From Eledone cirrhosa (lineage: Eukaryota), in assembly GCA_964016885.1 (NCBI GenBank), contig OZ024741.1:312046001-312110000 (forward strand): a stretch of 64,000 nucleotides of DNA, in the 5' to 3' direction. A program made the position numbers and the translations under genes. Positions within the stretch are counted from its first letter, which is position 1. Each line of letters starts with the position of its first letter. This document shows positions 50,217 to 55,293 of this stretch, one piece after another. The notes beneath the pieces were generated by a model. The model had not been told where the DNA came from. It saw nothing but the letters and a program-made list of their open reading frames with translations, and did not search any database.

Positions 50217-52701
50217 ACATGCAACTGTACGTCTGTATACATATATAAATGTACGTATACATACATACTTACATTTAAGTAAGTGCCGCATTAAGAGTTA
50301 GAAATGAAATTTCGTTTCATTCTATTCCATTTATCGTTTTCGGTGCGCCTGGCCGACTGAACTCACTCGATATGCAAATTTCGCTGCTCGGCCGTTAATT
50401 TTCATAAGGAAAGTATATACCTTCGGACGTTCAACCATCTGACAGAAAGGTATACGGTGCTGACGATAGCTAACAAGCTTGAAACTAGTACATCTTTCCT
50501 GTGTCAGTGTTGAACAAAAAGGTGACGTGGTTGCCTAAACCCTGTACGGCGTAAATCAGGTTGTTCGTTTGTTTACAAACGAACAAAGCGTACATTATAA
50601 TAAATGTTCGGTAAACTGATACGTGCATATATATATATATGTGTGCCTGTATGTATATATATATATATATATATATATATATATATATATATATATATAT
50701 ATATATATATATATATATATATATATACATGCTACTGTACGTCTGTATACATATATGTATGTACGTATACATACATACTTACATTTAAGTAAGTGCCGTA
50801 CTAACAGTGAGGAATGAAATTTTGTTTCATTCTATTCCATTTATCGTCTTCGGTGCGCCTGGCCGACTGAACTAACTCGATATGCAAATTAGAATGCTCA
50901 GCCGTTAATATTCATTAGGAAAGTATATACTTTCGGTCGTTCAACCATCTGGCAGAAAGGTATACGGTGCTGACGATAGCTAACAAGCTTGAAACTAGTA
51001 CATCGTTCCTGTGTCAGTGTTGAACAAAAAGGTGACGTGGTTGCCTAAACACTGTACGGCGTATATCAGGTTTTTCGTTTGTTTACAAATGAACAAAGCG
51101 TACATTATAATAAATGTTCGGTAAGCTGATACGTGCATATATATATATGTGTGCCTGTATGTATATATATATATTTATATATATATATATATATATATAT
51201 ATATATATATATATATATATATGTATATATATATATATATATATATATATATATATATATATATATATATATATATATATATATATATATATATATATAT
51301 ATATATGCATGCTACTGTACGTCCGTATACATATATGTATGTACGTATACATACATACTTACATTTAAGTAAGTGCCGTACTAAGAATGAGAAATGAAAT
51401 TTCGTTTCATTCTATTCCATTTATCGTTTTCGATGCACCTGGCCGACTGAACTCACTCGATATGTAAATTAGGCTGCTCAGCCGTTAATTTTCATAAGGA
51501 TATATATACTTTCAGACGTTCAACCATCTGGCAGAAAGGTATACGGTGCTGACGGTAGCTAACAAGTTGGAAACTAGTACATCGTTCCTGTGTCAGTGTT
51601 GAATATAAAGGGGACGTGGTTGCCTAAACACTGTACGGCGTAAATCAGGCTGTTCGTTTGTCTACAAACGAACAGAGCGTACATTATAATAAATGTTCGG
51701 TAAACTGATACGTGCATATATATATATGTGTGCCTGTATGTATATAAATATATACATATATATATATATATATACAAGCTACTGTACGTCTGTATACATA
51801 TATGTATGTACGTATACATACATACTTACATTTAAGTAAGTGCCGTATTAAGAGAGAGAAATGAAATTTCGTTTCATTCTATTCCATTTATCGTTTTCGG
51901 TGTGCCTAGCCGACTGAACTCACTCGATATGCAAATTGGGCTGCTCAGCCGTTAATTTTTATAAGGAAAGTATATACTTTCGGACGTTCAACCATCTTGT
52001 AGAAAGGTATACGGTGCTGCCGATAGCTAACAAGCTTGAAACTAGTACATCGTTCCTGTGTCAGTGTTGAACAATATGTTGACGTGGTTGCATAAACACT
52101 GTACGCGTAAATCAGGCTGTTCGTTTGTTTACAAACGAACAAAGCGAACATTATAATAAATGTTCGGTAAACTGATACGTTCATATATATATGTGTGCCT
52201 GTATGTATATAAATATATATATATATATATATATATATATATATATATATATACATGCTACTGTACGTCTGTATCCATATATGTATGTACGTATACATAC
52301 ATACTTACATTTAAGTGCCGTACTAAGAGTGAGAAATGAAATTTCGTTTTATTCTATTCCATTTATCGTTTTCGGTGCGCCTGGCCGACTGAACTCACTC
52401 GATATGCAAATCAGGCTGTCAGCCGTTAATTTTCATAAGGAAAGTATATACTTTCGGACGTTCAACCATCTGGCAGAAAGGTATACGGTGCTGACGTCAG
52501 CTAACAAGCTTGAAACTAGTACATCGTTCTTGTGTCAGTGTTGAACAAAAAGGTGACGTGGTTGCCTAAACACTGTACGGCGTAAATCAGGCTGCTCGTT
52601 TGTTTACAAACGAACAAAGCGAACATTATAATAAATGTTCGGTAAACTGATACGTGCATATATATATGTGTGCCTGTATGTATATAAATATATACATATA
52701 T
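50217..52701 (+). repeat. HHR tandem repeat family B (5 units, period 468-579 owing to variable (TA)n)
   Basis: HHR motifs at 50454, 50964, 51543, 52011 and 52485. The last three have core mutations. Confidence 0.9.
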
Positions 52702-52860
52702 ATTGGAATAAATGCTCTGAAATAGCGATATATATGTGAATATAGACACAGAATATTCGAAAATATTCTGTATGTTTATAATAAACATTTTGAAGACCTA
52801 ATCGCTATAGAATAGAATACGTCACGTATTACAATTAGATTCTCGATAAAAGCAAGGGAA

Positions 52861-52904
52861 GTAAGTCTACGCGTTTCATTCTTGTTAGAATTCATCAGGA
52901 CTAC
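52861..52904 (-). ncRNA. Type I hammerhead ribozyme (also 53172, 53483, 53794, 54105)
   Basis: GUAGUC-CUGAUGA-AUUCU(AACA)AGAAU-GAAA-CGCG-UA-GACUUAC. Confidence 0.9.
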
Positions 52905-54503
52905 ATATCCAGTGCTTTCATCGAGAATGACACAGCTAGAGACTTATAGAATACTTAGCTGTGTACAGGAACTGGTTTGAAAGAGCGGTTGCCGGTCCGG
53001 CAGAAATTAGAAATTGGAATAAATGCTCTGAAATAGCGATATATATGTGAATATAGACACAGAATATTCGAAAATATTCTGTATGTTTATAATAAACATT
53101 TTGAAGACCTAATCGCTATAGAATAGAATACGTCACGTATTACAATTAGATTCTCGATAAAAGCAAGGGAAGTAAGTCTACGCGTTTCATTCTTGTTAGA
53201 ATTCATCAGGACTACATATCCAGTGCTTTCATCGAGAATGACACAGCTAGAGACTTATAGAATACTTAGCTGTGTACAGGAACTGGTTTGAAAGAGCGGT
53301 TGCCGGTCCGGCAGAAATTAGAAATTGGAATAAATGCTCTGAAATAGCGATATATATGTGAATATAGACACAGAATATTCGAAAATATTCTGTATGTTTA
53401 TAATAAACATTTTGAAGACCTAATCGCTATAGAATAGAATACGTCACGTATTACAATTAGATTCTCGATAAAAGCAAGGGAAGTAAGTCTACGCGTTTCA
53501 TTCTTGTTAGAATTCATCAGGACTACATATCCAGTGCTTTCATCGAGAATGACACAGCTAGAGACTTATAGAATACTTAGCTGTGTACAGGAACTGGTTT
53601 GAAAGAGCGGTTGCCGGTCCGGCAGAAATTAGAAATTGGAATAAATGCTCTGAAATAGCGATATATATGTGAATATAGACACAGAATATTCGAAAATATT
53701 CTGTATGTTTATAATAAACATTTTGAAGACCTAATCGCTATAGAATAGAATACGTCACGTATTACAATTAGATTCTCGATAAAAGCAAGGGAAGTAAGTC
53801 TACGCGTTTCATTCTTGTTAGAATTCATCAGGACTACATATCCAGTGCTTTCATCGAGAATGACACAGCTAGAGACTTATAGAATACTTAGCTGTGTACA
53901 GGAACTGGTTTGAAAGAGCGGTTGCCGGTCCGGCAGAAATTAGAAATTGGAATAAATGCTCTGAAATAGCGATATATATGTGAATATAGACACAGAATAT
54001 TCGAAAATATTCTGTATGTTTATAATAAACATTTTGAAGACCTAATCGCTATAGAATAGAATACGTCACGTATTACAATTAGATTCTCGATAAAAGCAAG
54101 GGAAGTAAGTCTACGCGTTTCATTCTTGTTAGAATTCATCAGGACTACATATCCAGTGCTTTCATCGAGAATGACACAGCTAGAGACTTATAGAATACTT
54201 AGCTGTGTACAGGAACTGGTTTGAAAGAGCGGTTGCCGGTCCGGCAGAAATTAGAAATTGGAATAAATGCTCTGAAATAGCGATATATATGTGAATATAG
54301 ACACAGAATATTTTCGAATATAGACACAGAATATTTTCGAATATTCTGTGTCTATATTCACATATATATCGCTATTTCAGAGCATTTATTCCAATTTCTA
54401 ATTTCTGCCGGACCGGCAACCGCTCTTTCAAACCAGTTCCTGTACACAGCTAAGTATTCTATAAGTCTCTAGCTGTGTCATTCTCGATGAAAGCACTGGA
54501 TAT

Positions 54504-54547
54504 GTAGTCCTGATGAATTCTAACAAGAATGAAACGCGTAGACTTAC
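54504..54547 (+). ncRNA. Type I hammerhead ribozyme (also 54815, 55126)
   Basis: gtagtcCTGATGAattctaacaagaatGAAAcgcgtagacttac. Canonical core, predicted cleavage after GUA. Confidence 0.9.
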
Positions 54548-55293
54548 TTCCCTTGCTTTTATCGAGAATCTAATTGTAATACGTGACGTATTCTATTCTA
54601 TAGCGATTAGGTCTTCAAAATGTTTATTATAAACATACAGAATATTTTCGAATATTCTGTGTCTATATTCACATATATATCGCTATTTCAGAGCATTTAT
54701 TCCAATTTCTAATTTCTGCCGGACCGGCAACCGCTCTTTCAAACCAGTTCCTGTACACAGCTAAGTATTCTATAAGTCTCTAGCTGTGTCATTCTCGATG
54801 AAAGCACTGGATATGTAGTCCTGATGAATTCTAACAAGAATGAAACGCGTAGACTTACTTCCCTTGCTTTTATCGAGAATCTAATTGTAATACGTGACGT
54901 ATTCTATTCTATAGCGATTAGGTCTTCAAAATGTTTATTATAAACATACAGAATATTTTCGAATATTCTGTGTCTATATTCACATATATATCGCTATTTC
55001 AGAGCATTTATTCCAATTTCTAATTTCTGCCGGACCGGCAACCGCTCTTTCAAACCAGTTCCTGTACACAGCTAAGTATTCTATAAGTCTCTAGCTGTGT
55101 CATTCTCGATGAAAGCACTGGATATGTAGTCCTGATGAATTCTAACAAGAATGAAACGCGTAGACTTACTTCCCTTGCTTTTATCGAGAATCTAATTGTA
55201 ATACGTGACGTATTCTATTCTATAGCGATTAGGTCTTCAAAATGTTTATTATAAACATACAGAATATTTTCGAATATTCTGTGTCTATATTCA

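Follow-up and report, generated by a model that had tools for sequence, protein, structure and literature searches.

Two tandem families of probable non-LTR retrozymes with Schistosoma-type hammerheads in a 64-kb stretch of Eledone cirrhosa DNA

The window analysed here, a 64,000-nucleotide stretch of Eledone cirrhosa DNA (contig OZ024741.1, positions 312,046,001 to 312,110,000 of the forward strand), contained 19 type I hammerhead motifs in two tandem families, A with a unit of 311 bp and B with units of about 420-580 bp. Judging by their sequences, both families are likely non-long-terminal-repeat (non-LTR) retrozymes that share the Schistosoma-type loop contact, are predicted to self-cleave as double hammerheads and were likely copied into (TA)n tracts by Penelope-like retrotransposons. 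In the sections of Cervera and de la Pena (2020; PMC7229834) cited here, a non-LTR retrozyme is a low-GC tandem repeat of 150-450 bp that carries type I hammerheads and is expressed as circles, with Penelope-like elements (PLEs) as its probable mobilisers; Li, Clavereau and Pollet (2026; bioRxiv 10.64898/2026.07.22.740005), in the text available, tied them to PLE end repeats. The retrozyme class and the loop module have been described already, and A and B are likely new families of a known system. As named families, they were not found in the literature searched, which comprised few subscription papers and text without figures. Among cephalopod papers, the 20 listed of 155 did not contain the term hammerhead ribozyme.

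The core pattern CUGAYGA...GAAAC matched 17 times in the window, compared with 0.19 matches expected by chance, and none of 100 shuffles reached 17; one of the matches was an unrelated motif at 63406. A relaxed scan returned eight family A and eleven family B hammerheads together with two weak unrelated matches, gaining three B copies with core changes over the strict pattern. The identical 19 hammerheads were recovered at 45-62 bits by a covariance model trained in part on these very sequences. The conserved core and the cleavage site were intact in all eight A and in eight of the eleven B copies, the site being GUA in the intact copies of both families, which is an NUH triplet. The window itself was AT-rich and repeat-dense, with broken Penelope-like, Helitron-like and LINE-like frames, which pointed to an animal genome.

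One intact motif of subfamily B1 and one motif of family A represent the two designs.

50960..51010, + strand: B1 type I hammerhead, intact; UAU 50961-50963, helix I 50964-50969/51001-51006, core 50970-50976, helix II 50977-50980/50987-50990 with U.U at its base, hexaloop UAACAA 50981-50986, palindrome ACUAGU 50994-50999, predicted cut after 51000, unpaired U 51007
54500..54551, + strand: A type I hammerhead; UAU 54501-54503, helix I 54504-54509/54541-54547 (one bulged letter), hexaloop UAACAA 54521-54526, palindrome ACGCGU 54534-54539, predicted cut after 54540, unpaired U 54548

The original prediction had described two hammerhead families within 50961..54551. What it observed was largely correct, and what it concluded was correct in part. 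The motifs were present there, B1 exactly as quoted (50959-51009), and three of the four B copies in that interval carried a catalytic-core substitution (51549, 52017 and 52491). The common layout it proposed, from GG(A)-UAU to UCC, held for B1 and not exactly for A, where the 3' strand of stem I has seven letters with a bulge in all eight window copies. Its subfamily B2 lay outside the interval, at 38686, 61415 and 61833; the loop AAUA and the swap of a helix I G.U for U.G were found in all three of these copies, and the quoted stem ACGUUG/CAGCGU in only one. Nor did the helices differ completely, as had been stated, because pairs 2.2 and 10.4 are common to A and B. Further variants came from three runs (X1, X5 and X6) examined as assembled contigs; X1 depth is a sum over contigs, its frequencies refer to the variant rows listed, and X1 may be the window's own source. 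The bulged helix I letter was missing from 70% of X1 depth at 52865, giving a majority A form with a 6-bp helix I, and U stood at 10.1 in 78% of the depth at 52891, where window A has an A-U pair at 10.1-11.1. The majority A form therefore also has the 2.3 G.U wobble and the U10.1.U11.1 mismatch of B.

In canonical metazoan type I hammerheads, helix I is 6 bp long and helix II 4 bp long, according to the passages cited from Cervera and de la Pena (2014; PMC4209133). B has this geometry, as does window A apart from one bulged letter, and with it both families give a 4x4 internal loop, (G/A)UAU opposite U-Y-C-Y, and the hexaloop UAAYAA as loop II. The first U of loop 1, the last A of loop 2 and the extrahelical pyrimidine were present in all 19 copies. 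This register matches the loops and contacts published for the Schistosoma mansoni hammerhead by Dufour et al. (2009; PMC2632901), which has a 4x4 internal loop with a 3' strand starting with U and a 5' strand ending in U-A-pyrimidine, and a Y-A-A-N-N-A hexaloop II. A and B differ from it in the loop II UAAYAA, whose U and A can close the loop as a pair, in having U as the extrahelical pyrimidine, and in the U.U found at the helix II base. Bulge and loop together represent the known Schistosoma-type tertiary module, as the original prediction had proposed. This contact is standard in canonical type I hammerheads, which keep it according to the portion of a review consulted (PMC6155905), and is not new. 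The pairing of UAU with AACA was, however, mis-registered. By analogy, the key partner is likely the unpaired 3'-strand U, docking on the last A of loop II, and going by the published Schistosoma structure only the last U of UAU would insert into the loop. The UCC of the original prediction starts with this very U. Natural U10.1-U11.1 together with palindromic stems III was reported in the cited text of Perreault et al. (PMC3088659), and GUA is, in the passage cited from PMC1636495, a natural and somewhat slower cleavage triplet.

We also searched public contigs for the core combined with a Y-A-A-H-A-A loop and a loop III of two letters; helix I and the internal loop were unconstrained. The metagenome scan yielded at least 116 loci, and 111 distinct matches were left once duplicates and matches cut by contig ends had been removed. 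Among the matches listed, to which all of the following counts refer, 12 of the 111 folded in the canonical register. The 3'-strand U occurred in 12/12 of these and in 33/99 of the remainder, the U-R-Y bulge in 10/12 and 12/99, and both together in 10/12 and 4/99, where the 12 are partly dependent (four come from one helix I family) and the 99 are an imperfect null that includes hammerheads in another register. None of the 12 resembled A or B, save for a 26-base core match between locus L033 and B. Two of them, L022 and L033, combine GUA, U10.1.U11.1 and the same bulge type. Viral contigs gave one match to the loop pattern and 16 to the U.U/GUA pattern, none of which folds in register, and one of 23 matches in prokaryote genomes folds. 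The L022 hammerhead (691-820; GUA, U.U, UAA bulge) is followed after about 60 bases by telomeric repeats, as in endonuclease-lacking telomeric PLEs; L033 resembles it and lacks the telomeric repeats.

Helix III, whose palindromic form was absent from the original prediction, consists of a single pair, A15.1-U16.1, around a palindromic tetraloop, producing the perfect palindromes ACGCGU in A and ACUAGU in B. A helix III of 1-2 bp with a small palindromic loop is found in most metazoan type I hammerheads, which work as dimers (PMC4209133, passages as above). Complementarity at the palindrome centre held in 14 of 15 aligned rows, with three types of pair, a result that none of 500 shuffles reached; along with the bulge and the 3'-strand U, the centre is the only feature left unselected in the 12 outside rows, which were picked for pairing, so that the helix covariation is partly by construction. 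By nearest-neighbour energies, the double hammerhead lay below two monomers by 8.7 kcal/mol (A) and 6.0 kcal/mol (B1), and for A the dimer was the minimum-energy cofold. We therefore predict that A and B hammerheads cut in pairs and not alone. Among the closest described counterparts are axolotl motifs of the newt satellite 2 type (PMC7229834, in the sections cited). HHR_Amex1 shares with A and B the one-pair helix III, the palindromic tetraloop, the full loop contacts and the dimer cleavage predicted here, and HHR_Amex2 shares with B the U.U at the helix II base and also cleaves as a dimer. A and B differ from both in uniting these traits in the same motif, with GUA; the likeness is one of described design.

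The fast behaviour that the original prediction ascribed to the single motif is accordingly doubtful, given the one-pair helix III, the palindrome and the U.U at 10.1-11.1. That each hammerhead works as a fast monomeric ribozyme, its loop contact offsetting a weak helix III, strikes us as distinctly improbable: the full tertiary module and the long extended helix I of both families would suit it, as would coral retrozyme monomers that cleave at about 0.8 per minute, but a monomer can close helix III only by A15.1-U16.1, the palindrome centre covaries, and an axolotl motif of the same design reached 6% cleavage in an hour when monomeric and performed much better when dimeric (both results from the cited sections of PMC7229834). 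With a helix III of this kind, kinetics measured on monomers would probably be misleading, and dimers would be the right substrate. The shared ancestry of A and B, which the original prediction had thought probable, does not follow from the module, since unrelated public-contig hammerheads carry the same partners and the module is therefore generic; outside the ribozyme, A aligned to B1 or B2 with z of 0.6-1.8 only, and 12, 35, 37 and 74 of 300 shuffles scored as high. A single retrozyme ancestor in this lineage, with the loop module kept and the helices rewritten, nonetheless has a reasonable though less than even chance, and is compatible with the retrozyme explanation. The rarer shared traits speak for it (GUA, U2.2-A1.2, and U10.1.U11.1, present in B and in 78% of A depth in X1), as do the 2.3 wobble and the letters CUAAYAAG common to both families, a short similar stretch where each abuts (TA)n, and the presence of both families in X1, X5 and X6. 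Set against these traits, the combination of GUA, U.U and bulge recurs in L022 and L033, of which neither shows similarity to A and only L033 matches B, through its core; the shared traits may thus be a coupled design.

Four pairs of helix I, two of helix II and the palindrome centre, seven base-pair positions in all, differed on both sides when A was compared with B, and all remained paired. Together with the G.U to U.G swap in B2, these double changes are good evidence for selection on structure. Selection, which the original prediction saw in UAU/AAYA, is borne out for the helices, and the window copies do not show it for the bulge and loop. B1 copies differed from their majority at 106 of 3336 sites, a background of 3.2%; the core had changes at 3/96 and the tertiary letters at 0/72, for which P is about 0.10 at that background and the comparison is underpowered. 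Fixed differences between B1 and B2 fell at 3/50 positions in the ribozyme and 41/326 elsewhere (P = 0.24). As for free variation of bulge and loop among copies, the letters stood in 19/19 window copies, and a UAA bulge variant occurred in X5 and X6: A as the third bulge letter made up 0.2% of X1 depth, most of X5 depth and a third of X6. The loop Y varied, with 54% U in X1. Genomic copies appear to decay neutrally, and selection would act on the few templates still replicating.

The arrays and insertions of the two families were as follows.

50218..52701, + strand: left part of the B1 tandem array; five ~430-bp units, 93-95% identical to one another, plus (TA)n of variable length
50460, 50970, 51549, 52017 and 52491, + strand: hammerheads of the left B1 array, the last three with core substitutions
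52702..54322, - strand: A array, minus arm; 5.2 copies of the 311-bp unit, hammerhead C3 at 52898, 53209, 53520, 53831 and 54142
54285..54367, no strand: point of inversion within the A array; it falls on the hairpin of the unit and carries a duplication of 23 bp
54326..55304, + strand: A array, plus arm; 3.1 copies, hammerhead C3 at 54510, 54821 and 55132
55293..56328, + strand: right part of the B1 array, which continues behind A without a change of orientation; hammerheads 55568 and 56057
45191-45443, - strand, and 45480-45998, + strand: separate B1 insertion with an inverted partial copy; hammerhead 45750
38248..38935, + strand: B2 insertion of ~1.5 units; hammerhead 38686, preceded by an inverted B2 hammerhead fragment at 38248-38289 (- strand)
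61110..61924, - strand: B2 tandem dimer with a 418-bp unit; hammerheads 61415 and 61833, ending at a (TA)n tract

The unit measured 311 bp in A, 418 bp in B2 and, in B1, ~430 bp without and about 470-580 bp with the TA tract. The units were ~33% GC, within the low-GC range (below 50%) of retrozymes, and appeared non-coding, with no open reading frame (ORF) of 150 amino acids within 50.2-56.3 kb. No LTR, primer-binding site or polypurine tract was evident in A or B by eye, without a dedicated search. B1 copies were 93-96% alike (one pair 99%), and B2 resembled B1 at 78-86%. As in animal non-LTR retrozymes (sections of PMC7229834 cited above), the units are a few hundred bases long with one type I hammerhead each, their circles are predicted to be self-paired (z of -3.9 to -9.4 on 25 shuffles), PLEs lie alongside and the genome holds more than one family. 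Unlike the non-LTR retrozymes described there, B has a variable (TA)n inside the unit, and A forms a divergent inverted array nested in B; the described retrozymes are expressed as circles, and A and B are known here from DNA.

The A array, with its eight copies in two divergent arms, lies inside the TA tract of B, a footprint of Penelope type. All seven full A units compared across both arms were identical, and window A differed from the X1 majority at four places common to all its copies, which fits copying from one template. A fold-back read artefact was ruled out for this array, since B keeps one orientation to the left and right of it. Ten letters of the TA tract are repeated on the two flanks of A, in low-complexity DNA next to a locally duplicated B block; they may be a target-site duplication, which in non-LTR retrozymes is longer than 4 bp where it occurs. 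The block in question, 51737-52310 and 55300-55870 (one unit plus the start of the next), was duplicated or converted across the A insertion, and the B copies at 52017 and 55568 have 14 private changes in common.

The candidate type of mobiliser is present in the same window.

17845..22087, no strand: broken Penelope-like element; reverse transcriptase 19372-20190, CxCX5C linker plus GIY-YIG-like domain 20191-20850; inverted copy of its own 3' end and a (TA)n flank

Two window frames carry the CxCX5C linker, the first of them with 457 long homologues, and going by this motif the PLE would belong to the Hydra clade. Craig et al. (bioRxiv 10.1101/2021.04.23.441226), in the portion cited, described Hydra-clade PLEs as CxCX5C-bearing and (TA)n-targeting, and noted that PLEs typically have inverted 5' copies. 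Three separate B insertions share one end point in the unit, beside (TA)n (43934, 45193 and 61112), and 55 X1 contigs show TA repeats behind that same position. These ends do not coincide with the cleavage site, in keeping with internal priming; for one PLE enzyme, internal starts and extension of both strands at AT-rich DNA have been reported (PMC11167929, passages cited). At 38170-38231 (- strand) lies a sequence of 62 bases related (87%) to the PLE 3' end at 22027-22088; it is 17 bases from the inverted B2 hammerhead fragment, with no TA tract between them (38170-38289). This single junction may be a template-switch chimera.

Two observations on PLE ends are added here. TTCC occurs within a few bases of the (TA)n junction at the left end of A (52702), at the preferred B1 end (45193) and at the PLE 3' ends 22085 and 38170, and may be a shared priming signal or chance. 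A likeness of B2 to the PLE 3' end at 56450-56800 passed dinucleotide shuffles and was rejected, as 195 of 728 window tiles score as high.

The units might instead be PLE end repeats (pLTRs) copied in tandem, not independent RNA circles, which we hold to be improbable. Inverted and partial tandem structures and (TA)n flanks are PLE hallmarks in the cited text of Craig et al., many Xenopus retrozymes match pLTRs in that of Li et al., and a PLE-type 3' end adjoins the B2 fragment at 38170-38289. However, none of the A or B arrays in the window has an ORF attached, the insertions end at differing unit positions, and up to five perfect consecutive units suit a circular template better. The PLE-linked hammerhead-like motifs of the window (42066 and 63406) are, moreover, of another, minimal design. 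Such minimal PLE-type motifs share with A and B the palindromic, dimer-type helix III and the PLE-type insertion pattern, but their helix II is longer (7-8 bp) and their helix I shorter (4-5 bp), they carry one additional letter behind position 9, and a defined loop 1 is missing; the long helix II, short helix I, missing loop contacts and attached ORF of a minimal hammerhead in a pLTR were not seen in A or B. It is still less credible that unequal crossover spread the arrays as inert satellite DNA in which the hammerheads are relics. B1 copies do decay at 3.2%, with core sites changing at an equal rate (3/96), and one B block was locally duplicated or converted (the 14 changes shared by 52017 and 55568); compensatory changes, seen from family to family and inside each, scattered insertions that share their ends, and a two-orientation A array with a possible target-site duplication, which is not a crossover product, argue otherwise.

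Several points weigh against the retrozyme explanation. Self-cleavage, transcripts and circles are deduced from DNA (the six runs listed included no RNA run, which was given no weight as evidence), and in Xenopus only one of nine predicted retrozyme dimers cleaved in vitro, according to the available text of Li et al. (bioRxiv 10.64898/2026.07.22.740005). Three of the eleven B copies have catalytic-core mutations, and the pair G10.1-C11.1, typical though not obligatory, is replaced by U.U in B and A-U in window A. Rfam gave no match in the window at the gathering score, and its E-value scan only one hammerhead match, Hammerhead_HH9 in one copy, at 18.8 bits against a threshold of 52. For the pair of isolated B1 motifs, an off-pathway duplex was lowest, at -23.1 kcal/mol versus -19.2 kcal/mol for the dimer. 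The fold z-scores of B are inflated by its self-pairing TA tract, and B1 units exceed the usual 150-450 bp when that tract is long. The local duplication or conversion of the B block weakens the 10-letter repeat around A as proof of a target-site duplication. Concerning the mobiliser, its identity is circumstantial, A and B showed no significant similarity to PLE ends in the window comparison, and hammerhead cleavage was unnecessary for insertion in the PLE system of PMC11167929, as described in the passages cited. The other 80 of 81 matches of the Rfam E-value scan were microRNA models on TA repeats or the inversion hairpin and were taken as chance.

In the retrozyme mechanism that we propose, a multimeric transcript would be made from the tandem array, and two neighbouring hammerheads would pair via their 6-letter palindromes. 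The 3'-strand U would dock on the last A of loop II while the last U of UAU enters the loop, cleavage after GUA would free monomers, and a host ligase would circularise them. A PLE reverse transcriptase would then prime on nicked (TA)n at internal sites and run round the circle, giving tandem and inverted arrays. Animal retrozyme mobilisation is itself still treated as a hypothesis in the literature cited here.

More tentatively, and with odds that we would call below even, a landing-pad history can be drawn for this locus: one variant A circle was copied into the internal (TA)n of B by a Hydra-clade Penelope enzyme, the palindromes serve as orthogonal dimerisation keys, and the PLE-B2 junction names the helper. 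If this were true, the A array would be the product of twin-primed rolling-circle reverse transcription, five turns one way and three the other, and the fusion at 38170-38289 a template-switch product. The families would share a loop module with U.U/GUA tuning, yet each would cut only when paired with its own kind, and the locus would directly record retrozyme movement and coexistence.

Being the standard type I contact, the shared bulge and loop add little, and the locus is more useful as a test case. The fresh, error-free inverted array, the shared insertion ends and a nearby PLE of (TA)n-targeting type lead to concrete predictions on mobilisation, and two natural families with the same scaffold and different palindromes are suited to a clean swap of dimer specificity.

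Among the minor observations, further minimal PLE-type hammerhead-like motifs lie at 42066 (-), 63406 (+), 44116 (+) and 63742 (-), the last two with U at position 3 and a palindromic helix III. A perfect octamer, ATGCAAAT, is located at 50882-50889, ~80 bases upstream of a B hammerhead, and at the corresponding position in most B copies; it is altered in one of the eleven B copies and does not occur in A. Newt satellite 2 has a promoter of the small nuclear RNA type. A and B boxes of RNA polymerase III were not found by a simple pattern. A large inverted repeat (45958-50267, ~3.6 kb, 83%) separates the B copy at 45750 from the main B array. A 232-bp tandem repeat in three copies, in which no hammerhead was found, lies beside TA tracts at 58686-59376, and broken Helitron-like Rep and Pif1 helicase frames occupy 6317-9030 on the - strand.

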